64,000 nt of DNA. It comes from a virus. Its lineage: Duplodnaviria > Heunggongvirae > Uroviricota > Caudoviricetes. The DNA is taken from the IMG/VR virus record IMGVR_UViG_3300025713_000004, one strand, 5' to 3'. Positions 137 through 63,143 of this stretch are shown here, one piece after another (positions within the stretch are counted from its first letter, which is position 1; the number at the start of each line of letters is the position of its first letter). The position numbers and the translations under genes are program-made. Under the pieces are notes generated by a model. It was not told where the DNA came from. It worked only from the letters and a program-made list of their open reading frames with translations, and ran no database searches.

Positions 137-230
137 TGTAAGTATTTATAATAAAATATGGTAAAAATATTTAATATTTTCTATAACTTTGGGGGATGAA
201 GAACTATTTATATACAAAAACAACTTTAAA

Positions 231-797
231 ATGTATTATAAATTATCTGATTACGCTAAAAAACATAATGTAACATACAGAACCGCATGGAATAGATTTA
301 AAAAAGGTCTAATTGACGGGGCGTTTATAGATGAACATGGACATATTAAAATCCCCGTTTTATCATTAGATAAATTAAACAACGCTATAATTTATTGCAG
401 AGTTTCTAATAATGATGCTAAGGATAATCTAAATAGACAAGCCGATAGATTGACAGACTATGCTATAAGAAACGGATATAATATCATTGATACTGTGAAA
501 GAAATTGCAAGTGGCCTAAACGATAATAGGAAAAAATTAACGGATATTTTAAAAAGAGATGATTGGGATTTACTTATTGTAGAAAATAAAGATAGATTAA
601 CCCGTTTTGGATTTAATTACATTAAAACATTATTAAATTCAAAAGGAAAAGATGTTATAATAGTAAATCAAACTGATGATGATAAAACAGACCTTATTCA
701 AGACCTTGTGTCAATTATATATTCATTCTCAGCCAGACTATATGGATTGAGGAAGAAAAAATCTAAAAAGGAAATTATGGACTTTATTAAAAATTAA
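231..797 (+). CDS. tnpA: IS607-family transposase TnpA (serine recombinase with N-terminal MerR-like HTH)
   Basis: The ORF track starts at a TTG at 189. The first ATG in frame, at 231, gives MYYKLSDYAKKHNVTYRTAWNRFKKG, a typical IS607 TnpA MerR-type HTH N-terminus. The catalytic block IYCRVSNNDAKDNLNRQADRL matches the serine-recombinase active-site region, with the catalytic Ser in 'RVS'. The size, about 190 aa, fits. Confidence 0.8.
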   Translation: MYYKLSDYAKKHNVTYRTAWNRFKKGLIDGAFIDEHGHIKIPVLSLDKLNNAIIYCRVSNNDAKDNLNRQADRLTDYAIRNGYNIIDTVKEIASGLNDNRKKLTDILKRDDWDLLIVENKDRLTRFGFNYIKTLLNSKGKDVIIVNQTDDDKTDLIQDLVSIIYSFSARLYGLRKKKSKKEIMDFIKN

Positions 798-807
798 ATT
801 ATAGATT

Positions 808-2076
808 ATGCAATTGGTGGAAAAACATATCGTTAAGAAAAATTCACGTCTATATTCAGAATGTGATAGAGTATGTTTTCTGTCAAAAAATCTTTATAAT
901 TATGCGAACTATATCGTAAGACAGGAATTTATTAAAACATCAAAAGAAAAAGAAGATGGTTTGGTTAAACATGCCAATTGGATAAGATATAATAGTCTTA
1001 ACAGAACATTTATTGATAATCATCAACACGACTACGTTATGTTACCAAGAAAGGTTTCAAATCAAACGTTGATGATGCTCGATAAAAATTGGAAAAGTTT
1101 CTTTAGAGCAAATAAAGATTATAATAAAAACAAAGAAAAGTATAATGGTAGACCAAAATTACCAAAATACATACATAAAACAGATGGTAGATTTATTACA
1201 ATATATGAGTTGGGTGCAATTTCTAAAAAGTTACTCAATAAAGGTATTGTTAAGTTATCTAAAACAGATATTGAAATTAGAACAAATAAGACCAATATAA
1301 ATATGGTGCGTATTGTGCCCTGTTTGGATGAATATACAATAGAAATAGTTTATACAATACCAGATATGTCACCAAAGGAAGATAATGGCAGATACGCTTC
1401 CATTGATTTAGGTTTGAATAATTTAGCGACCATTACAAGTAATGTTAAAGAATTAAAACCTGTCATAATAAACGGAAAACCGTTAAAGAGTATTAATCAA
1501 TTTTATAATAAGAGGTTGGCACACTATAAAAGCAAATTAGAAAAAATTAACAAGAAAAAACATAGTAAACGAACAAGATGGTTAACCAATAAAAGAAATA
1601 AAAAAATCGATGATTACTTACACAAATCAAGCAGATTGATAATTAATATGCTAAAAGAAAAAGAAATAAATACATTGGTGATAGGAAAGAACACCAACTG
1701 GAAACAAGATATTAACATCGGTAAAACCAATAATCAGAATTTTGTTTCCGTACCATATAGTAGATTTATAAACATGTTGGCTTATAAATGCGAAATGGAT
1801 GGTATACGAACAGTTTTACAAGAAGAGAGTTACACATCAAAAGCATCCTTTTTAAATAACGATTATATTCCAATACACAGTAAAGAGTGTGGGGATAATC
1901 ATATATTTTCAGGATATAGGCAAAGCCGTGGGTTATATAAGATAAAGGGCTGTGATGTTGTGATAAATGCTGATGTAAACGGTTCATATAATATATTACG
2001 AAAAGCATTCCCGAATATTATTGACGGGATAGAGGGGTTTGCAGTAATCCCAGTAATTATTACAATTACAAACTAA
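808..2076 (+). CDS. tnpB: TnpB (IS605 OrfB family RNA-guided endonuclease)
   Basis: The 422-aa protein has an OrfB_IS605 N-terminal region. It has the RuvC-I motif ASIDLGLNNLATIT, an Asp/Glu-containing RuvC-II region, and a C-terminal zinc finger (C..C..17 aa..C, as in CGDNHIFSG...KIKGCDVVINADVNGSYNI). It lies directly downstream of tnpA. Confidence 0.85.
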   Translation: MQLVEKHIVKKNSRLYSECDRVCFLSKNLYNYANYIVRQEFIKTSKEKEDGLVKHANWIRYNSLNRTFIDNHQHDYVMLPRKVSNQTLMMLDKNWKSFFRANKDYNKNKEKYNGRPKLPKYIHKTDGRFITIYELGAISKKLLNKGIVKLSKTDIEIRTNKTNINMVRIVPCLDEYTIEIVYTIPDMSPKEDNGRYASIDLGLNNLATITSNVKELKPVIINGKPLKSINQFYNKRLAHYKSKLEKINKKKHSKRTRWLTNKRNKKIDDYLHKSSRLIINMLKEKEINTLVIGKNTNWKQDINIGKTNNQNFVSVPYSRFINMLAYKCEMDGIRTVLQEESYTSKASFLNNDYIPIHSKECGDNHIFSGYRQSRGLYKIKGCDVVINADVNGSYNILRKAFPNIIDGIEGFAVIPVIITITN

Positions 2077-2090
2077 TTCTATGATTTTCT

Positions 2091-3299
2091 ATGGAATTTG
2101 ATACTGTTTGGGATAAATATGGATTTACAAATAAAATTTTATTATTAAGCAGGGGTGTTTGTTTATGGTGGACACCAAAAAATACAGCATCTTTTTTTAT
2201 TTCTAGGGTTTGTAAATGGTTAAAAAATAATACAAAATATAGAATAATAACAGCAACTGTTGACCCAGCAGCAGGTGAAATCGGAACAATTTATCAATCA
2301 TTAAATTGGTTATATGTTGGTGTTATGTCTGGTAATTATTCCAATAATAAAGAAACAAAAAGATTTTCAGTATTAATTGATGGTAAATTAAGATATAGTA
2401 GATGGGTTAGAAATAAATTGGGTACGATGAAAAAAAATGTTATTTTAAAACACTATCCCAATGCAATATTTTTACCACAATATAGAAAACATAGATATTT
2501 TTATTTTATAGACACACCAAGAAATAATAAAAAACATAAAACATCTATAAATCATTTAATATTACCATATCCTAAAAGAAATGATGAAATTATTGGCGTT
2601 ATTTATAAAATAAAAAACAAAATAAACAACAAATTATATATTGGACAAACAATTCGTTCAATAAATGAAAAAATATTAGAATATAAAAATGGTTTGGGTA
2701 ATGATTATATTAATAATGCATTCAATAAGTATGGTTGGGATAATTTTGAATTTACAATAATTGATACGGCAAAAACAATTCAAGAACTAAACAATAAAGA
2801 AATTAAATATATTAGTGATTATAAATCAAACCAAAAAGAATTTGGTTATAATATTGAAGGTGGTGGTAAAAATATAATACCAACAAAAGAAACTTTAGAT
2901 AAAATGTCTATTTCTCATTTAGGTATTAAACAATCTAAAGAATGGATTAATAAAAGAATTTCAAAAGCAGGTAGTAATGATGCAAAAAAATACGGTAGAA
3001 AAAAAACAAAGCAAGATAAATTAATTTTAAGTAAAAATTCTTCTAAATATTGGTTAGGTAAAAACCATACAGAAGAAACTAAACAAAAAATTAGTAAAAC
3101 AAAAAAACAAATTGGATTGTCTGAAAAACAAAAAGAAATAATTTGCAAAAAGGTATTTAAAGTTAATTTAAAAACTAATGAAATTATTGAATTTGAATCA
3201 ACAAAAAAGGCGAGTGTTTTTGAAAATGTTAATCAATCCACAATATCAAGATGGTGTAAAAATGAAAAAAGAGTAAATGGTTATTTATGGAAAAATTAA
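2091..3299 (+). CDS. GIY-YIG homing endonuclease with NUMOD3 / IENR1-like DNA-binding modules and an extra ~150-aa N-terminal domain of unknown function
   Basis: The central GIY-YIG core is GVIYKIKNKINNKLYIGQT...KYGWDNFEFTIID...NKEIKYI...FGYNIEGGG. C-terminal lysine-rich NUMOD3-like repeats (TKQKISKTKK, SEKQKEIICKK) and a terminal helix-turn-helix-like tail (NVNQSTISRWCKN) resemble I-TevI/Seg-type endonucleases. The N-terminal 150 aa (WWTPKN...RIITATVDPAAGEIGTIYQSLNWLYVG) is not part of a GIY-YIG fold I recognise. Confidence 0.7.
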   Translation: MEFDTVWDKYGFTNKILLLSRGVCLWWTPKNTASFFISRVCKWLKNNTKYRIITATVDPAAGEIGTIYQSLNWLYVGVMSGNYSNNKETKRFSVLIDGKLRYSRWVRNKLGTMKKNVILKHYPNAIFLPQYRKHRYFYFIDTPRNNKKHKTSINHLILPYPKRNDEIIGVIYKIKNKINNKLYIGQTIRSINEKILEYKNGLGNDYINNAFNKYGWDNFEFTIIDTAKTIQELNNKEIKYISDYKSNQKEFGYNIEGGGKNIIPTKETLDKMSISHLGIKQSKEWINKRISKAGSNDAKKYGRKKTKQDKLILSKNSSKYWLGKNHTEETKQKISKTKKQIGLSEKQKEIICKKVFKVNLKTNEIIEFESTKKASVFENVNQSTISRWCKNEKRVNGYLWKN

Positions 3300-3874: not shown

Positions 3875-6800
3875 TTAAGAGATATCTGTCCAATTTCTAT
3901 CAAAGATTAATTCATTTTTTGCTCTTGTATATGCAACATATTCTAAATTTTTTTCTTGTAAAAATTCCCAATTTTTTGTTGTTTTCATTGGTAATAAATC
4001 TGGTCTTATTATAAAGACCCTATTTGCTTCAAGACCCTTTATTTTATGTATTGTACTTAAGCAAATTCCTTGAATTTCATCACTAAAAATTAAACCAATT
4101 TTATTTTTTAAATCAACAATACTATTTGATAATTTTGCTAAAAAAAGTAATGTTGTTACTTTATCTTCTAATGTAACATAACCACTATGTTCATTTGGGT
4201 TTAAAATACCTTCCTTTTTTAATTCTTTTCTATATTTAATTAATTCTCTATCCCAAAAAAGAATTAAATTGTCAATAGATTTAATATCACCAATTAATTC
4301 AATTAACTGAACACCAATATCAGAACCTTTCACAATTGCTTTTTTTTCTTGTTCTAAAAATTCAAAAAATAATTTAATTAATGGTATTGTTGTTCTACAT
4401 AAAACAAAATCACCACTTTCTGCTTCTTTTAAAACATTACCATCCCTTACAATACCATCAGGTGCATTGGGTAGTGCTTTTATATCAGGTACAATTTCTT
4501 GTGCTTTTTTTATTACATTTTTTGAACATCTGAATGACGTTGATAATGGTAGTGTTTTAGTATTTGGGAATTTACTAAACCATTCAAACGCTTTTTCATC
4601 TGCTGCATTAAATCCATATATACAATTATGTGTTAATATATTATCAGCAACATATGTTTCGTATTTATCAATTTCTAAAGAATAAACTAAACCAGAATAT
4701 TTTTCATATTTTAATTCATATATTTTTTGAATGTTGTGCAAATTTGCATTTAAACTGCAAATTTGCATTAAATCTGGAATAATATTAATTGCATATATTT
4801 CTAAAAAATTTTGATTATAATCCATATTCCAATTAGAATTCCATATCGGGTAGTTTGAATTTTTATTAAAATCATTAAATATTTTATCTTTATTTGCTAA
4901 ATAATAATTAGCATCTTTATATGCATAATACAAAGAATAGTACGATTTTAAAATCCAAATTTTATTAACATCACTTTTATTCTTAAAAATTTTAAAAAAA
5001 TCAATCTCATTTCTTATTGTGAATATACGTATGTGTTGAGTTTCATCCATCAATTCAAACAAACACAATACAAATTGTAATTGTTTTGTTTTTTTTATTT
5101 TAACCAAACATTTATGTTCTGGTGTATATTTAGATTCACATCCTCTTGAAATTATTTTTATTAAATTTCCATTATAATACCTACAACCAATATTGTTAAT
5201 TTTACTTTTAATAAAGGAATTACTTTTTCTATCGTAAGAAATAATTAAATCACCAACATTTAAATTTTCAATATCCTTTTCTGTATTATCATTCATTAAT
5301 ATTTTTGTTCCTTTAGGTTGACATTGATAATAATCACCAACAGATATTAATCTACCTATATATTTACCAGTAGTTTTATCTTTTTTTATTAATTTTTCTA
5401 CAATTTTTATTTGACAACGATTTAAATCTTGAACTTCATCAATAAAAATATAATCTTGAGGAAACATCCAAATACTACTATCTATTGCTGGTAAATATAT
5501 CATATCAATAAAATCATAATTTTTTCTATCAATTGTTGATTCTTCTAATATTTTTAATATTCTTTTAATATCTTTATTTTCTTTAATTGGTATATTATAT
5601 TTTTCAGCAATATTTGGAATAAATTCTGAATTTGTTGTTAATGTTAATCTACATAAATTAACCATTTTTTTTATATTATTTAAATATAAAGAAATATCAT
5701 CGTTATCATCAAATTCATCGTTTAATTTCCAATTTTTTGATTTTGATTGTATTATTTTATCAATTTTAAATTCATCGAATTGTATTTTATCACCATATTT
5801 TCTTTTAATTGCAGACGTACCTAAACCATAAGTTGTATAACATCTAACATATTCGGGTAATTTTGTTTTTAATTCTTCTTGTATGTGTTTATTGAACGCT
5901 AAAAACATAATAGATTTATCTTTAGGTAATAATTTTACTGCATCAACTATGGTTGAAGTATTGTGTGTGATTGTAAAATCACCCAATAAAAATCTACCAT
6001 TACCATTTAAAGTAAATCCAAAATATAAACCTTGTGATATAATATTTTCTTTTATTTTAAAAGAAAATAAATTATTGTAATTTGTTTTTTGTTTTCTTTT
6101 ATATACTAAAGGTAATATGCTAGTATTTCCATTAATGTCAATTTTCCAAAAAATGTTATTTCGAAAAGAAAATATCTTTTTCTCTTTATATATAAAACCT
6201 AAACTTTCACATAAAAATTTCAAATTAACTATTTTCCTTTTTGAAATTATTGTTAGTTTGGATGTCCTGTTTTTTTTATTATAATAAACATCAAAAATAC
6301 CCGCCAAGATTTTTTTTCTATTTTCAATAGAATTTATTAGATATTTGTCTGGTATTGATAAATGAATATTCTTTTTGTTTTTATCAATATTAAAAATAAT
6401 ACACTTTTGAAAATCATCGGAATAAAAACCCTTTTCATATTTTTTATTTAAACAAACACTTGTTTTATTTAAAACAAAAAAAGAATTATCTTTTAACTCC
6501 AACAATTTTTCTATTATTTTTCTTGTTAACCTAAAATCGACAAATAAAAATTGTTTTATATTATTTTTTAAATTATATCCTAACCATAATCCTAATAAAT
6601 ATGGATTTATTTCTGTTTTATTTTCTTGAAATTCAACAATGGATTTTTTTAATTTAATATTTTTTAAATAACCATTCCATTTTTTTGAATATTTGAGTTC
6701 ATTTAGTGGTGTATCTAACAAAATTTTAGAAATTTCATTGTAATGTGTAATTACATGAACATCATTACAAACCCAAGAATATCCTATTTCATTTTTTATT

Positions 6801-7045
6801 TTATATAGTTTACCATATCCAATATTTTTATTCAATACTTTACGAGGCGATGAATCATCACCCATTAAAAAATCACCAATTTTTATATCTTGAACCCTTT
6901 TTATTGTTCCATCATACATCAATACTGGTGTATCATATCCAAGACATTTACCTGTACCAGCATATGCTTTTATTAAAATATTTTCAGGTCTTTTTTTTGT
7001 AAATAAAAATATTCTTTCTTGTTCTTTTGTTGGTTTATTAATCAT
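3875..7045 (-). CDS. SF1 DNA helicase (UvrD/PcrA/Rep-like) precursor interrupted by two inteins
   Basis: The extein sequence reconstructs a UvrD-family helicase. Motif I is AYAGTGK|T (Walker A), split after Lys. Motif Ia is TSTIVDAV. Motif II is IFIDEVQDLN (DExx). Motif III is VGDYYQ|CIYGFNAAD (compare GDxxQxIYxFRGA), split before Cys. Each break is occupied by an intein-like insert that starts with Cys and ends with ...THN followed by T or C. Confidence 0.8.
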   Translation of the reverse strand: MINKPTKEQERIFLFTKKRPENILIKAYAGTGKCLGYDTPVLMYDGTIKRVQDIKIGDFLMGDDSSPRKVLNKNIGYGKLYKIKNEIGYSWVCNDVHVITHYNEISKILLDTPLNELKYSKKWNGYLKNIKLKKSIVEFQENKTEINPYLLGLWLGYNLKNNIKQFLFVDFRLTRKIIEKLLELKDNSFFVLNKTSVCLNKKYEKGFYSDDFQKCIIFNIDKNKKNIHLSIPDKYLINSIENRKKILAGIFDVYYNKKNRTSKLTIISKRKIVNLKFLCESLGFIYKEKKIFSFRNNIFWKIDINGNTSILPLVYKRKQKTNYNNLFSFKIKENIISQGLYFGFTLNGNGRFLLGDFTITHNTSTIVDAVKLLPKDKSIMFLAFNKHIQEELKTKLPEYVRCYTTYGLGTSAIKRKYGDKIQFDEFKIDKIIQSKSKNWKLNDEFDDNDDISLYLNNIKKMVNLCRLTLTTNSEFIPNIAEKYNIPIKENKDIKRILKILEESTIDRKNYDFIDMIYLPAIDSSIWMFPQDYIFIDEVQDLNRCQIKIVEKLIKKDKTTGKYIGRLISVGDYYQCQPKGTKILMNDNTEKDIENLNVGDLIISYDRKSNSFIKSKINNIGCRYYNGNLIKIISRGCESKYTPEHKCLVKIKKTKQLQFVLCLFELMDETQHIRIFTIRNEIDFFKIFKNKSDVNKIWILKSYYSLYYAYKDANYYLANKDKIFNDFNKNSNYPIWNSNWNMDYNQNFLEIYAINIIPDLMQICSLNANLHNIQKIYELKYEKYSGLVYSLEIDKYETYVADNILTHNCIYGFNAADEKAFEWFSKFPNTKTLPLSTSFRCSKNVIKKAQEIVPDIKALPNAPDGIVRDGNVLKEAESGDFVLCRTTIPLIKLFFEFLEQEKKAIVKGSDIGVQLIELIGDIKSIDNLILFWDRELIKYRKELKKEGILNPNEHSGYVTLEDKVTTLLFLAKLSNSIVDLKNKIGLIFSDEIQGICLSTIHKIKGLEANRVFIIRPDLLPMKTTKNWEFLQEKNLEYVAYTRAKNELIFDRNWTDIS
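4625..5323 (-). other. Intein 2 (233 aa) in helicase motif III
   Basis: The insert begins CQPKGTKILM and ends ADNILTHN, followed by the +1 Cys of CIYGFNAAD. Removing it restores the UvrD motif III GDYYQ-CIYGF. Cys-rich stretches (GCRYYNGN...GCESKYTPEHKC) suggest a small embedded nuclease or zinc module. Confidence 0.65.
5960..6946 (-). other. Intein 1 (329 aa) in the helicase P-loop, carrying a LAGLIDADG homing endonuclease
   Basis: The insert starts CLGYDTPVLM (intein block A: Cys, four residues, Thr, any residue, a hydrophobic) and ends FTITHN immediately before the extein Thr that completes GTGKT. It contains two LAGLIDADG-type motifs (PYLLGLWLGYN, which is PI-SceI-like LLGLWIGDG, and KILAGIFDVYYN). 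Confidence 0.75.
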
Positions 7046-18947: not shown

Positions 18948-19589
18948 ATGAAAAGAATAAAAAATTTTATAAATGTTAAAATATTACCATATTTAAGAAG
19001 TGGATATGGTTATTACTATTACCTTTGTTTTAAGAATTTTATAATAAAACTCATAAAACCAAAGAAAATAATAGCCATTAAATGGAGAATTACTATTGAT
19101 GAAGAATTTAAATACGTCACGTATGTTGAAAAATGTTTAATTACAAGGTATATAGGAAGAATAAGAAACAATATACTATTTGATAATAAAGACACTTTTC
19201 ATTTTAAATTTAATAATATACCCACAGCACCATCATCAATATATGAAAAGGATGTAATTAATCCAGAAATCAAACCCCAAAACGATTTTTATTTTGTTGA
19301 AAAAAACTGTTTGATTGAATATATAGTGGATGAATTTAATGATAATTCAATTGTTTTTCATTCTGAAAATTTCACACATTTCAAGATTGGTAATTCAGAA
19401 TGGATACCCATTGAAAATATTGACTATAGGTATGGTGGATTATGTTTATTTTCGTTTGAACATAAATTATTTGCAATTATTGAAACTGATTTAATTTCAG
19501 AAGTAAGTAAAAATGAAATTGGTAATTTAATAGAAAAAGATTTAAAGGAATTAACACTTTCTTTTCAAAAAATTAAACAAAAAATATAA
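18948..19589 (+). CDS. hypothetical protein
   Basis: 213-aa ORF. Confidence 0.35.
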   Translation: MKRIKNFINVKILPYLRSGYGYYYYLCFKNFIIKLIKPKKIIAIKWRITIDEEFKYVTYVEKCLITRYIGRIRNNILFDNKDTFHFKFNNIPTAPSSIYEKDVINPEIKPQNDFYFVEKNCLIEYIVDEFNDNSIVFHSENFTHFKIGNSEWIPIENIDYRYGGLCLFSFEHKLFAIIETDLISEVSKNEIGNLIEKDLKELTLSFQKIKQKI

Positions 19590-58949: not shown

Positions 58950-60686
58950 ATGGATGGTGTTGTAGAAAATACATTTACAGCATATTTGGGATATGAATTT
59001 CAACAAAAATTAATGTGGCAATTATTGGTTGAACCAGAATTTGCAGAAAAAACAATTCTTAATTTAGAAATTGAATATTTTGATGACCCAATTTTAAAAA
59101 GATTGTTTATAATAATTTTAGAATTTTATAAAGAATTTGAAAAAGTTCCTAATCTTCAGAATAAAAGCATTTATCAAGCAATAAATACATATAAAACACC
59201 AAATAATTCAATAGAAGAAGAATCGTTGTTTTCTATAATTAAACGTCTTGAATTATGGAATGAAAGGATTATTAATAAGCAAATGTTGTATGATGGGGAT
59301 GTTATTAGAAAAAGTACAAACATTTTTATTAAACAACAAGAATATCGTAAATTATCAGATTATATTCATGAAAATGTAAAAACGGGTGATATTAAAAATA
59401 AATATGTTGTTGGTTTAATTGAAGAAAAAATAAGAACAATATCGTTGATTGATTCTGAAGATGATTCTGAAGAAGTTATTGAAGGAATTGATATTGCATT
59501 AAGAAAAGAATTTAGAAAAACAATACCAACTGGTGTTGGTGTAATTGATGCATTAAGTGGTGGTGGTTTGGGTAGGGGTGAAATTGGTTTAATTTTATCT
59601 CCATCGGGTGTTGGAAAAACAACCTTATTAACTGTTATTGCAAACACTGCATATGAAAATGAAAAAAACGTAGCACAAATAATATTTGAAGATACTAAAG
59701 ACCAAATAAAACGTAAACATTATACAATATGGGCTAAATCAGCATTGAGTAAATTGGATGATGAAGATGAAAACGAAAGAGTTAGTAATGTTGTATATGA
59801 AAAAGTAAAACAATTAAAAGGTAAGGGCAAGTTAGTTATTAAAAGATTTAGTCAAGATAATACAACAATATTAGATATTCGAAATTGGATGATTGGTTAT
59901 GAAAAAAAATATGGTTTTAAATTTGATTTATTGGTTCTTGATTATCTTGATTGTTTAGAACCACACAAAAAAGCATACGATAGAAATGATGCAGAATTAA
60001 TAATTGTAAAGGGATTTGAATCACTTGCTGGTGATTTAGATATTCCTGCTTGGTCTGCTATTCAAAGTAATCGTTCTGGTTTTGGTGCAGAATTTATAGA
60101 ACCACATCAATCAGGTGGTAATATAAAAAGAATTCAAAAATCACATTTTTTTATGAGTGTCGCTAAAACTGATGAACAAAAAGAAGCGCATTTAGCAAAT
60201 ATTTTTATTATTAAAGCAAGATTTGCACAAGATGGTCAAAGATTTGAAGATTGTATTTTTAATAACGACACAATGCAAATTGTAATTGAAGATAGTAGAT
60301 ATAAATATTCAAAAACATATAAAAATTTAAAACATTATAATGAAAAAGATAAAGAAACTTTTGATGAAAAGGCTAGTAAAATGTTAGAAGAAAAATCATC
60401 AACAATGAAAATACATGAAGCAATTTGCACTACAAATAATCTAAAAGAAAAAGAAGAATCTGATAGAATTAATGATTTATTGTTAAAAAACAGGGAAGAA
60501 ACGAATGAAAATAAAGATGATGTAAATAATTTGGATGAAAAAGAAATAGAAAATAACTTAAATTTAGAATCGAATTCTAATAATTTAAAGGTAGATAATA
60601 AAATTTATTTTGATAATAATGATGATGAAATAGAATCATTATTAGAAAAATTACGTAAAAATCAAGATGTTATAAAAAAAGAATGA
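58950..60686 (+). CDS. replicative DNA helicase, DnaB/T4 gp41-like
   Basis: GVIDALSGGGLGRGEIGLILSPSGVGKTTLLTVIAN matches the DnaB Walker A/H1 region. The domain order is N-terminal helical domain followed by a RecA-like C-terminal domain. A C-terminal acidic/Lys-rich tail follows. Confidence 0.75.
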   Translation: MDGVVENTFTAYLGYEFQQKLMWQLLVEPEFAEKTILNLEIEYFDDPILKRLFIIILEFYKEFEKVPNLQNKSIYQAINTYKTPNNSIEEESLFSIIKRLELWNERIINKQMLYDGDVIRKSTNIFIKQQEYRKLSDYIHENVKTGDIKNKYVVGLIEEKIRTISLIDSEDDSEEVIEGIDIALRKEFRKTIPTGVGVIDALSGGGLGRGEIGLILSPSGVGKTTLLTVIANTAYENEKNVAQIIFEDTKDQIKRKHYTIWAKSALSKLDDEDENERVSNVVYEKVKQLKGKGKLVIKRFSQDNTTILDIRNWMIGYEKKYGFKFDLLVLDYLDCLEPHKKAYDRNDAELIIVKGFESLAGDLDIPAWSAIQSNRSGFGAEFIEPHQSGGNIKRIQKSHFFMSVAKTDEQKEAHLANIFIIKARFAQDGQRFEDCIFNNDTMQIVIEDSRYKYSKTYKNLKHYNEKDKETFDEKASKMLEEKSSTMKIHEAICTTNNLKEKEESDRINDLLLKNREETNENKDDVNNLDEKEIENNLNLESNSNNLKVDNKIYFDNNDDEIESLLEKLRKNQDVIKKE

Positions 60687-60850
60687 AAATTTTATTAAAT
60701 TTTGTAACATTTTATAAAAATTATCGTATTTATATCTACAAATAATATTTTTCTAAAAATTTGCATTTTAATTTTTTTTATTTATCTTTGCAGTGATTAT
60801 TGAAGATATGTTCTTTTAAGATATGTAAACAGAAACTGGTTGTTAATACA

Positions 60851-60923
60851 GTACAATTAACTCAATGGATAGAGTGTTCATTCACAATATGAAATATTGT
60901 TGGTTCGATTCCAACATTGTAAA
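60851..60923 (+). tRNA. tRNA (73 nt), anticodon uncertain
   Basis: It folds as a cloverleaf: acceptor gtacaat/attgtaa with a G1.A72 mismatch; D-stem actc/gagt with a GG-containing loop; a perfect anticodon stem ttcat/atgaa with loop tcacaat; T-arm gttgg-ttcgatt-ccaac. The loop reads ACA at positions 34-36 but has C instead of the near-universal U33, so the identity is unsure. Confidence 0.45.
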
Positions 60924-60956
60924 AAAATAACAAACAAATTTTCTGTTTTTTGAAAT

Positions 60957-61042
60957 TGCGGTGTGGAGAAATGGTATCTCGCCTGCCTCATAAGCACGGA
61001 GTCCCTATTGGGTTTAAATGGGTTCGATTCCCATCACCGCTA
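60957..61042 (+). tRNA. tRNA-like gene with a CAU anticodon loop and a long (class II-like) variable arm
   Basis: Acceptor (t)gcggtg/caccgc(t). D-stem gaga/tctc. Anticodon stem cctgc/gcacg with one C.C mismatch and loop cTCATAa, giving anticodon CAT. A 19-nt variable region holds a ccc/ggg mini-helix. T-arm atggg-ttcgatt-cccat. A long variable arm combined with a CAU anticodon is atypical. Confidence 0.45.
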
Positions 61043-61066
61043 CAAAAAAACGTTCTTTATATAAAT

Positions 61067-61200
61067 GGGGAGTTAGCAAAATTAATACAAAAAATATTAT
61101 ACAATTACTTATTTGATATAAGAACTAATAGTATTTACAGTTAGGAAAATGCAATTGTTTTGGATACAATGATTTGTAGGTTCGAGTCCTACACTCCCCG
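61067..61200 (+). tRNA. tRNA-Pro(UGG) interrupted by a ~60-nt insertion in the D-stem/loop (intron-containing or disrupted)
   Basis: The 5' piece ggggagt-ta-gca (61067-61078) and the 3' piece agttaggaaaa-tgc-a-attgt-tttggat-acaat-gattt-gtagg-ttcgagt-cctac-actcccc-g (61139-61200) assemble into a canonical tRNA. The acceptor is a perfect 7/7 pairing, the anticodon loop is uUUGGau and the T-loop is TTCGAGT. The two pieces are separated by an AT-rich 60-nt insert (61079-61138). Confidence 0.4.
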
Positions 61201-61345
61201 CAGTTTGGGAAAACTAGAAATGTTTACAGTAAATATCGGTTCGAATCCGATATTATCCTACCATAATGGATAATTAGCCGAATTGGTTTAGGCACAAGTA
61301 GTTTAAACTTGCAAAAAAAGAAAATATTTCTAAACTATTCCCTTT
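61201..61345 (+). ncRNA. circularly permuted tRNA-like module, candidate Y RNA (YrlA-like) partner of the downstream Ro60-like protein
   Basis: The order is the reverse of a tRNA. First comes the T-arm atcgg-TTCGAAT-ccgat (61235-61251), then the acceptor 3' strand attatcc (61252-58), then a 9-nt closing loop taccataat. The acceptor 5' strand ggataat (61268-74) gives a perfect 7/7 pairing. Next come ta, the D-arm gcc-gaattggttta-ggc and an anticodon-like hairpin caagt-agtttaa-acttg (61295-61311). The flanks (about 61207-61221 and 61326-61342) can pair imperfectly, with bulges, to close the molecule through the variable-region position. Confidence 0.4.
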
Positions 61346-61496
61346 TTTATAGAAGAAGAACTGGATGTATTTTCAGTAATATGTGCAAATATATTTACAA
61401 AAAAATATAACCAAGTTACTTCTTTTTTTTTGCTTTTTTTGTAACATTTTTTAAATACATTCGTAAAATATATTATAATTTTAAATTGGTTTAATT

Positions 61497-63143
61497 ATGG
61501 AAAATTTAGTTTTAACCCAAAAAATGTTGGGAACTATTAAACAAACTTTAATTGATGGTCTTACTGTTGCATCTGGTAGTAAGAGTAGTGCGACTTATTA
61601 TCATAGTAGGGATGAACAGATTGTTGCAATTCGAAAAGAAATTAATAAAATGTATAAGATTTCAAAAGAATTGCCACTTTTAATTGCATGTCAGAAAGGT
61701 GTTACAGGAAAATTTATTTCTGAAGTATTATTAAATGAATTTAAAAATACTTCAAGGGGTGGTGCTTGTAATATTATAAGCCCAATTGATTGGTATGATA
61801 ATGGTTTATCTGATAAAGCAATTTTAATTGCTTTGAATAATTTAAATATTGATAATGGAATACCATATGTCTTTAGATTATTTCAAGATTTGAAAATTAA
61901 TAAAATTAATAATGAAAGGTCAAGAAAATTTGTTTTAGGTTTTATTTGGGGGCAGGAAAATCTTGAATTTTATTGTTTAAAATATCGTAATAAAATTGCT
62001 AAAATTTTTAAACATGTATATGGTGAAAAAATGATATCTATTTTATTATCAATTGGAAATAAACTACTTTTAACTGATAATAATCAAATTATACTAACAC
62101 CAAAAGAACATGGTATTTTAAATAGTTTAGTTTTAAAGTATTATAATGGTGATTTGATTAAAGCCATAAAATTATTGTTTTTTATTTTCAAGAAAAAACA
62201 AGATGTTGATTTGTATAGTGATGTTAATGATTTTCCATTAATTAGTGAATATCAAAAAGCAAAAATTGATATTAGTGATATAAAGAAAATACCAGAAGAA
62301 GTATTAATTGGTTTGATTTCTGATATTAAACATCCACAATATCATGTTTTATGGTCTAATAAAGAACAAAGAGAATCTACTAAAGCGTTAATTCGTAAAA
62401 ATGTGGAAGTTACATCAATTAATCAACAAGTTCGTCAAACAAAATCTAATGTTAAATTGGGTGTAGATAAAACTGTTGATTTAAATAAGGCAACTGATTT
62501 TCTTGCATTATATAAAACAGGATATGAAAATGGTTTTAGTTTAGAATTAACAAATGCAATTGATAATCTTGCTAATAAAAGAAAAATAAAGGATTTTTAT
62601 TACACAAATATTGGTATTATTCAAGATGATAGTATTTCAATGACAGGTAATAAAATTGAATCAAAAAATACTCCAAGAGCAATTGTTGATTTTACTGCTA
62701 AAGTATTGTCAAAATCAGTAACAAATCATGTTGTTGTAAAAACTAAGGATATTTTTACTGATTTGGGTAGTTCATTTATTGAACTATTAAAAAAGAATGA
62801 AACATCTAATTTACAATATGATGCTATTTTTATATTAACCGATGGATATGAAAATATTTATGATGGGTTATTGAATGAAATTATTGATGTTTGGAAAATT
62901 GAAACAGGTATTGATATTCCAATATTTCAAATTTCCCCAATAACAAGTGCTGAAATGGATTCTAATGTTAGAAAAATTGGTGATAATGTTATTACAATGG
63001 CAGTTAATAACCCAATTGCAATTCAACCACAAATTTCAGCAAGATTACTTGAAATTGACACTAAGCGTTGGTTGGAAAATCAAGTTCTTATGCTTGAAGA
63101 ATCTAATTTAAGTCGTATTAATAAAATTAATGTTAATAACTAA
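61497..63143 (+). CDS. Ro60/Rsr-like protein (TROVE-sized N-terminal region plus C-terminal vWA domain with MIDAS)
   Basis: The 548-aa length fits Ro60 (about 540 aa). The C-terminal vWA has MIDAS IIQDDSISMTG (DxSxS) and downstream AIFILTDGYENIY (hhh.TDG), the same placement as the Ro60 vWA. The N-terminal 360 aa is helical-repeat-like, as expected of TROVE. tRNA-like/Y-RNA-like genes lie immediately upstream. Confidence 0.5.
   Translation: MENLVLTQKMLGTIKQTLIDGLTVASGSKSSATYYHSRDEQIVAIRKEINKMYKISKELPLLIACQKGVTGKFISEVLLNEFKNTSRGGACNIISPIDWYDNGLSDKAILIALNNLNIDNGIPYVFRLFQDLKINKINNERSRKFVLGFIWGQENLEFYCLKYRNKIAKIFKHVYGEKMISILLSIGNKLLLTDNNQIILTPKEHGILNSLVLKYYNGDLIKAIKLLFFIFKKKQDVDLYSDVNDFPLISEYQKAKIDISDIKKIPEEVLIGLISDIKHPQYHVLWSNKEQRESTKALIRKNVEVTSINQQVRQTKSNVKLGVDKTVDLNKATDFLALYKTGYENGFSLELTNAIDNLANKRKIKDFYYTNIGIIQDDSISMTGNKIESKNTPRAIVDFTAKVLSKSVTNHVVVKTKDIFTDLGSSFIELLKKNETSNLQYDAIFILTDGYENIYDGLLNEIIDVWKIETGIDIPIFQISPITSAEMDSNVRKIGDNVITMAVNNPIAIQPQISARLLEIDTKRWLENQVLMLEESNLSRINKINVNN

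Follow-up and report, generated by a model that had tools for sequence, protein, structure and literature searches.

Y RNAs bind the protein Ro60. More than 250 bacteria and 22 phages encode them at a distance of up to about 4 kb from the Ro60 gene and in the same orientation (PMC4201824). The type called YrlA consists of a Ro60-binding stem with the motif GNCGAAN0-1G and a permuted tRNA-like domain in which T arm, acceptor stem-loop and D arm follow one another, and the YrlA of M. smegmatis is cleaved by RNase P and receives an added CCA (PMC4201824). The Thermus phage phiLo carries two Y-like RNAs with a CGAA bulge upstream of its Ro60 gene (PMC12135203). TROVE proteins with a tRNA-like partner have also been described in some jumbo phages (PMC7824862).

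Here, we analysed a locus in a 64,000-nucleotide (nt) stretch of a tailed phage (Caudoviricetes; IMG/VR record IMGVR_UViG_3300025713_000004), and this whole stretch is called the window below. Its subject is element A, a 134-nt tRNA-shaped RNA at 61067-61200 on the plus strand, which is followed by two further RNA elements, B and C, and by an open reading frame (ORF) for a protein of 548 residues (ORF548). Almost certainly, element A is not a tRNA-Pro that has been split or broken but a conserved and structured non-coding RNA of which a module within the D arm is an integral part. Most likely, it represents a new form of Y RNA that mimics a tRNA, because its stem recurs on neighbouring RNAs just upstream of a gene for a Ro60-like protein.

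Structure and conservation of element A

Neither ARAGORN nor Rfam at its gathering score called a tRNA at 61067-61200. With relaxed thresholds, the Rfam tRNA model aligned only with the 3' part (61139-61195; 25.7 bits against a cut-off of 29). The first-pass annotation had described a tRNA-Pro(UGG) interrupted in the D arm by about 60 nt, and its flanks do combine in this way, as ARAGORN calls a 74-nt tRNA-Pro(UGG) when 61067-61078 is joined to 61139-61200. The exact 7/7 acceptor match on which it relied (GGGGAGT/ACTCCCC) is indeed improbable by chance, with about 0.0003 matches expected per 130 nt at the base composition of the window and a single occurrence of ACTCCCC on the 64-kb plus strand. 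By comparison with relatives and with canonical tRNAs, the extra segment follows G10-C11, within the 5' half of the D arm, and spans 61078-61136, which is only 1-2 nt off the boundaries first given. An imperfect direct repeat of 12 nt (AGTTAGCAAAAT, 61071; AGTTAGGAAAAT, 61139) was also considered as a target-site duplication; it is missing in the relatives and was rejected as coincidental.

Relatives of the locus were reached by a protein search of IMG/VR with the helicase encoded upstream, which gave 80 related loci, and a degenerate pattern added 56 further stretches. A blastn search of INPHARED with the locus gave no match. In many of the related loci, 61047-61202 including the insert was found by blastn at about 70-78% identity and similar length. 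A covariance model (R1) was then built from 21 sequences. It found 69 full-length copies, 52 of them distinct (77-162 bits), on viral contigs of up to 357 kb from uncultured jumbo phages, and it aligned with the window copy over the full model length (128.3 bits, E = 7e-27). Some phages carry two or three paralogues of element A with different triplets in the anticodon-type loop. The family was seen in viral and metagenomic contigs only; a pattern scan of 185,579 representative prokaryotic genomes gave 13 pattern matches, none of which was confirmed by the covariance model.

The alignment of the 52 distinct copies showed that 98.8% of cells are standard pairs and that both sides have changed in 23 of the 30 pairs. 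The observed pairing values were not reached by any of 500 shuffles, and slid controls fell to about 50% paired. Covariation supports five helices, namely the acceptor stem, the anticodon-type arm, the T arm, and two helices in the insert (S1 and S2). The minimum-energy fold of the native 134 nt is a cloverleaf with a long D-arm hairpin (z = −2.4).

The acceptor stem has 7 base pairs (bp), formed by GGGGAGU (61067-61073) and ACUCCCC (61193-61199) and followed by the discriminator G at 61200, and compensatory changes occur in six of its seven pairs among the homologues. U8, A9, G10 and C11 occupy 61074-61077. U8-A9 is invariant (TA in 52/52 copies), and G10-C11 pair with G24-C25 at 61151-61152. 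The longer GCA/UGC D stem described earlier exists in the window copy and is specific to it, since most relatives have AAGC at that site and can form only the G10-C25 and C11-G24 pairs.

The extra segment begins with an A-rich linker (61078-61091). The 5' strand of S1, AAAUAUUA (61092-61099), then forms 8 bp with UAGUAUUU (61129-61136); 97% of S1 cells are paired, and compensatory changes were found in four pairs. The internal loop and the S2 hairpin lie between these strands at 61100-61128 and read UACAAUUA, CUUAU (61108-61112), a loop (61113-61117), AUAAG (61118-61122) and AACUAA (61123-61128). Compensatory changes occur in four of the five S2 pairs, and GAACU of the internal loop is nearly invariant. 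Over the whole alignment, S1 is AAAUACUA/URGUGUUU and S2 is CUCUC/GAGAG with many compensatory changes.

The rest of the D region, ACAGUUAGGAAAAUGCA (61137-61153), contains the 3' flank of the module with (N)CAGU, the GG of the D loop at 61144-61145 (G18 G19), the 3' strand of the D stem and A26, and it aligns with UCAGU..GGUA.AGCA of canonical tRNAs. It is followed by the anticodon-type arm (61154-61170), in which AUUGU and ACAAU form a covarying 5-bp stem around the loop UUUGGAU with UGG at 61161-61163, by a variable loop of 5 nt, and by the T arm GUAGG UUCGAGU CCUAC (61176-61192), in which 5/5 pairs covary. The canonical T loop UUCRANU is present in 50 of the 52 copies, and the D-loop GG is conserved.

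When R1 was applied to the tRNA cluster of phage T4, tRNA-Thr, tRNA-Gln and others were aligned end to end, and nothing was skipped except the A-rich linker and the S1/S2 domain of 46 nt. Thus, the remainder of element A is a canonical tRNA body. Removal of the module in silico led ARAGORN to call a tRNA in 41/52 copies, against 2/52 when the copies were intact.

A further complementarity was noticed within the family. In most subfamily-1 copies, the insert sequence CUAUCUC complements positions 4-10 (GAGAUAG), which corresponds to columns 4-11 with 40-46 of alignment A3 and to 61070-61076 with 61097-61103 in the window. The pairing would be in competition with S1 as well as with the acceptor stem. 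We counted three compensatory events, but the statistics are weak: the helix is 86.8% paired, compared with 85.5% after shuffling, and the window copy no longer has it. Either a folding switch or chance could explain the complementarity.

The anticodon-type loop is the variable part of the body. Among 50 seven-nt loops, the triplet is UGA in 30, GUA in 6, UUG in 3, AUG in 3 and UGG in 2, and UUA, UUC, CGA, UAA, AUU and GUG are seen once each. Twelve of these 50 loops have a nucleotide other than U at position 33, two more copies have loops of 6 or 8 nt, and orthologues at the same genomic position differ in their triplet. The variation in triplet and U33 is at odds with a decoding constraint and argues against decoding. 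The identity as tRNA-Pro therefore fails: with an anticodon that is not conserved across the homologues, element A is neither a tRNA-Pro gene nor a decaying one.

The shared module and the Ro60-like neighbour

The insert of element A is one copy of a module of about 59 nt that consists of an A-rich linker, S1 (AAAUACU/AGUGUUU), the GAACU internal loop, S2 and NCAGUAA. Elements B and C contain it as well. In both, the A-rich linker again stands 5' of the S1 5' strand and NCAGUAA again stands 3' of the S1 3' strand.

Element B is a circularly permuted tRNA-like RNA of 136 nt (61207-61342, plus strand). From 5' to 3' it contains GGGAA, AACUAG, an S1 strand, ACAGUAA, a T arm, an acceptor hairpin, a D arm, an anticodon-type arm, an A-rich linker, the other S1 strand and UUCCC. 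Its terminal stem S1 pairs AAGUGUUU with AAAUACUU and matches the insert of element A. About half of the homologues have AACGAA as the internal loop AAC(G/U)AA, which faces UUAAAUUG; the window copy has AACUAG. S2 (GGGAA/UUCCC, 5 bp) is open, whereas that of element A is closed by a loop. We found 28 distinct homologues of element B, and RNAalifold on 26 of them gave 35 pairs, 20 with compensatory changes. The element occurs once per locus in 71 loci and lies 3' of element A in all loci checked.

The acceptor hairpin of element B (61252-61258 with 61268-61274), in which the acceptor 3' strand precedes the 5' strand, has the loop UACCAUAAU. The loop is GCCAAAAAU in most copies and reads (G)CCA-AAAAU in most homologues. 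Cleavage by RNase P and trimming could therefore give a two-piece tRNA with a free CCA end, as with permuted transfer-messenger RNA (tmRNA) precursors and with M. smegmatis YrlA. A test of element B with ARAGORN on permuted joins was set aside and covariation used in its place; the test does not discriminate, because out of 2250 arbitrary joins as many as 930 gave a tRNA call.

Element C is a small RNA with no tRNA body whose ends form the S1/S2 module (about 61352-61425, plus strand, with a U run after it). The order is GAAGAAG, AACUGGA, UGUAUUUU, CAGUAA ... AAAAUAUA, ACCAAGUUA, CUUCUU. It was defined by motif search and by an alignment of 17 distinct sequences, of which 16 are of the C type, and its relatives have an added GC-rich central hairpin that the window copy has lost.

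A 20-nt motif, (G/A)AAC(U/G)..GURUUUNCAGUA, occurs two to five times per locus, always on one strand and between the helicase gene and ORF548. In the rest of the 64-kb window, we found one looser match to the degenerate pattern, at 19483. Elements A, B and C lie directly upstream of ORF548 on the same strand, and the 3' end of element A is 297 nt from it.

The association extends to a distant genome. In the GenBank phage collection, a protein 24.6% identical to ORF548 was found in one entry only, a 462-kb uncultured phage (LR756500.1; L134 in our set), and three module RNAs lie within 3.1 kb upstream of this Ro60-like gene on the same strand. Two of them are A-type elements (R1, 72.9 and 59.7 bits). 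One of these two has a complete D arm 3' of the module, and thus the module stands between nt 9 and the D arm there. The third (2340-2480, plus strand) is a near-canonical tRNA (UAA) whose leader (GGAGA, AACUAAU, AAUUAUU, ACAGAA) and trailer (AAAUAAUU, GUUGAAUUA, UCUCC) form the S1/S2 module. Taken with elements A, B and C, these RNAs show one module combined with tRNA bodies in at least three topologies: within the D arm, as the terminal stem of a permuted tRNA, and as the leader and trailer of a normal tRNA. In element C, the module occurs with no tRNA body.

ORF548 (61497-63143, plus strand) encodes a protein for which an alpha-helical repeat ring and a vWA domain with a MIDAS motif are predicted. 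Searches of PHROG, Pfam and PDB by sequence, with the single protein or with profiles, gave no match. A first structural model (predicted local distance difference test, pLDDT, 65) had only Ro60 proteins among its top ten Foldseek matches. A second model from a more diverse alignment (pLDDT 78; predicted template modelling score, pTM, 0.79) has helical repeats over residues 1-360 and then an alpha/beta domain. Its top 12 Foldseek matches are all full-length matches to Ro60/TROVE proteins (Xenopus, human, Deinococcus Rsr, Thermus phage phiLo), with E-values from 1.3e-7 and template modelling (TM) scores of 0.43-0.53 for the best; the next match has E = 0.003. The architecture of Ro60/Rsr, a helical repeat ring followed by a vWA domain with MIDAS in about 500-540 residues, is also that of the ORF548 model. 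The MIDAS residues DxSxS...T-D are invariant in close relatives, and D377, S381 and D449 are invariant across the wide family. This family is large (at least 741 clusters at 50% identity), and the contigs that carry it reach about 500 kb. From the models, it appears to represent a Ro60-like clade of huge phages that lacks annotation.

Synteny, the shared module and the predicted fold together point to a link between element A and Ro60. On the best reading by analogy, element A is a Y-RNA-like (YrlA-like) RNA with an unpermuted tRNA body and would work as a Y RNA does. It would be a stable non-coding RNA of about 134 nt, in which the module may serve as the docking site for the phage Ro60-like ring protein, following the Y-RNA pattern. 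The tRNA body would let the RNA mature like a tRNA through RNase P, 3' trimming and CCA addition, and it may bring a tRNA-binding partner to Ro60 or act as a decoy for one. We give a probability of about 0.6 to this arrangement, in which the module docks the ring and the tRNA body is an effector or processing module. The first-pass annotation had listed, as one of its options, another structured RNA that shares tRNA arms, such as a second Y-RNA-like molecule, and this is the option that the evidence favours.

Several observations weigh against a Y RNA. We regard ORF548 as a Ro60/Rsr-like protein that has diverged strongly, but this assignment is based on a predicted fold. Pfam TROVE matched neither ORF548 nor 46 relatives, PDB gave no match by sequence or profile, and annotation at the sequence level is confined to weak vWA matches in 13 of 36 family members. 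The motif GNCGAAN0-1G/CGAA is not found in the module of element A, which has GAACUAA in the window and GAACUN in relatives; it is approximated in element B, by the AACGAA of about half of the homologues. Known Y RNAs bind Ro60 through a stem made of their own ends, which on Xenopus Ro60 lies against the outer face of the ring, and the presumed site in element A is an internal hairpin closed by a loop. An Rfam 15 scan of 60600-61500 at E ≤ 10, run with no positive control on a known phage YrlA, matched no family of the Y-RNA type. Finally, the tRNA body is kept well enough for a translational role to be conceivable.

Competing explanations

It is possible, at rather long odds, that the module of a conserved tRNA-like RNA binds some other factor, such as a host factor or an RNase, and that the adjacency to ORF548 is a matter of synteny only. 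The structural evidence fits this explanation equally well, and the missing canonical Ro60-binding motif in element A and the failure to detect TROVE by sequence both speak for it. However, the association between module RNAs and the protein family persists down to 25% protein identity, and the motif is nearly confined to the array, the looser match at 19483 being the one other in the window.

A similarly doubtful explanation is that element A functions as an aminoacylated tRNA and retains the extra arm for identity or protection. The arm might, for instance, replace the long variable arm found in class II tRNAs or be a shield against host anticodon nucleases; no link to Ro60 would be needed. 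The core is canonical and the acceptor end is free, 43 of the 52 copies have A as their discriminator, and some copies encode CCA. Paralogues within one phage differ in triplet as isoacceptors do, and the majority loop NUUGAAA is also that of tRNA-Ser(UGA). However, the seven-nt loops that lack U33 and the two copies with loops of 6 or 8 nt are difficult to explain for a decoding tRNA, and so are the triplets AUG and AUU with an A34 of the unmodified type and the different triplets of orthologues at one position. The sequence of the arm is, moreover, common to elements B and C, which lack a free acceptor end or any tRNA part.

Somewhat less probable still is that element A does both. It could be a matured, CCA-bearing and aminoacylated tRNA with a docking arm for the Ro60-like ring. 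Ro60 could then be delivered to EF-Tu or the ribosome, or it could protect or police private tRNA-shaped RNAs with fast-changing anticodon loops, which might, for instance, be decoys or replacements in a conflict with host anticodon nucleases. If this were true, the three topologies would be variations of one design that links Ro60 to the tRNA world.

An intron is improbable. According to this proposal, which was among the first suggestions, splicing removes the module of about 59 nt and joins the halves into a decoding tRNA of 74-75 nt (Pro here; Ser, Tyr and others in relatives). The recognisable tRNA that results from module removal in 41/52 copies speaks for it, and the CUAUCUC complementarity to 5' exon positions 4-10, with its three compensatory events, is a possible exon-binding guide. 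However, this exon-pairing helix is weak, scarcely above the shuffled level and lost in the window copy, and in most homologues joining would leave a D stem of just 2 bp. Elements B and C have this module as their terminal stem, where the role of an intron is impossible, and the triplets of the A34 type and the loops without U33 are unsuited to decoding. The Rfam scan of 60600-61500 matched no group I, group II or ribozyme family. A bulge-helix-bulge motif, for which the first-pass annotation had proposed to test the insert, was not seen by eye, and the consensus is a simple hairpin of S1, internal loop and S2. At 59 nt, the module is far smaller than self-splicing introns, and no bulge-helix-bulge endonuclease is known from bacteria or their phages.

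A recently disrupted or decaying tRNA-Pro pseudogene, for which one could cite that ARAGORN and Rfam do not call element A as a tRNA, is excluded for practical purposes, because alignment with the related phages shows an insert of the same length and conserved sequence in 52 distinct homologues, with compensatory changes that keep both S1 and S2, and the window copy itself scores 128 bits.

The array in its genome and among known systems

The window (24% GC) is part of a tailed, jumbo-phage-like genome and encodes a tail sheath, a T4-type baseplate protein, thymidylate synthase, a DnaB-type helicase, a 5'-3' exonuclease and a UvsX-like protein. The RNA array lies downstream of the DnaB-type helicase gene (58950-60686). 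The order exonuclease, orf179, DnaB-type helicase, RNA array and ORF548 is kept in all relatives with sufficient flanks. Among the 40 ORFs scanned elsewhere in the window, there was no gene for Rsr, RtcB or an RNA ligase. A scan for promoters and terminators gave no usable signal, as the stretch is too AT-rich.

Two tRNA genes of ordinary length open the array on the plus strand (60851-60923 and 60957-61043; called by ARAGORN and by the Rfam tRNA model with 48.5 and 47.5 bits). The first has the anticodon loop UCACAAU, with C33 and the triplet ACA, and a G1xA72 mismatch. Its orthologues have the same body with the triplets CAA, GUC, UCA (opal suppressor), UUC, GUU, UUA (ochre suppressor) or UAU, and this position thus carries a hypervariable anticodon on a conserved scaffold. 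The second is a tRNA(CAU) of 87 nt with an extra variable arm of 14 nt, which among five aligned orthologues is common only to loci L046 and L050. Fifty CAU tRNAs were called at this position in the 80 loci, and they measure 73-76 nt in nearly all loci with listed coordinates.

Mobile elements were observed at the other end of the window. A serine-recombinase (Resolvase) gene and then a TnpB-type gene (OrfB_IS605 and a Cas12f-like TNB domain) at 189-2076 (plus strand) make up an IS607-like element. In an ORF at 2091-3299 (plus strand), a Mom-like domain is accompanied by the homing-endonuclease motifs GIY-YIG and NUMOD3. At 3875-7045 (minus strand), a UvrD-like helicase (1056 residues) contains internal Hint/intein segments (Hom_end_hint, Intein_splicing).

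We compared the array with known systems of several kinds. tmRNA, including the two-piece form from permuted genes, also joins a tRNA-like acceptor and T-arm domain to a foreign domain, and the (G)CCA of the acceptor loop of element B resembles it. However, there is no tag reading frame and no G3-U70 pair, and the tmRNA models of ARAGORN and Rfam gave nothing beyond a chance match of 11.5 bits, the Rfam scan of 60600-61500 included.

The non-canonical introns and the permuted or split tRNA genes of archaea and some algae share with element A an insertion outside the anticodon, and with element B a 3' half placed upstream of the 5' half. Those systems need a bulge-helix-bulge motif and a splicing endonuclease, whereas the supposed intron of element A is a conserved module common to non-tRNA RNAs, in a tailed phage with bacterial-type replication genes.

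The tRNA cluster of phage T4 ends distally with the genes for two stable RNAs, each about 120-140 nt long, namely species 1 RNA (rnaC, 139 nt) and species 2 RNA (rnaD, 119 nt). In size and position they are like element A, and rnaC has a canonical T arm as well. R1 matches only this T arm of rnaC (8.8 bits), so homology was rejected and the T4 RNAs are regarded as positional analogues. They differ also in that the 4-kb T4 stretch examined has no annotated Ro60-like gene.

Yrl1 and Yrl2 of phage phiLo are closer. They too are two RNAs directly upstream of a phage Ro60 gene, and have a stem-bulge-stem with a short conserved loop motif. According to the accessible part of the source, they are formed by a 5'-3' stem around the CGAA bulge, and a tRNA body is not mentioned there. 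The module of element A lacks CGAA.

YrlA gives the most extensive likeness. Like YrlA, element A lies on the same strand as, and near, a gene of Ro60 type (as identified from the predicted fold), and it consists of a stem module and a tRNA-like domain. This domain has an acceptor stem of 7 bp, a canonical T arm and the GG of the D loop, so that the nucleotides for a tRNA elbow are present. Each locus contains several such RNAs. In element B, T arm, acceptor stem-loop and D arm follow exactly the order of YrlA, and its ends pair. However, element A is unpermuted, ends in an acceptor stem and has a full anticodon-type arm, the module presumed to bind Ro60 is inserted into its D arm as a closed hairpin, and the partner protein is too divergent for Pfam TROVE. 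Because it is unpermuted, has its ends outside the module stem and lacks CGAA, we have not filed element A as a member of YrlA.

The finding has consequences for annotation. The Ro60-like protein family is invisible to Pfam, and tRNA finders miss a class of tRNA-shaped genes that may be misannotated as split, intron-containing or pseudo-tRNAs. The phage clade also provides a natural series in which one stem module is combined with several topologies of the tRNA body, including complete tRNAs with free acceptor ends. With this series, one can test directly to which part Ro60 binds and what enzymes or factors of tRNA handling the RNAs attract, and the series addresses the role of the tRNA-like half of bacterial Y RNAs.

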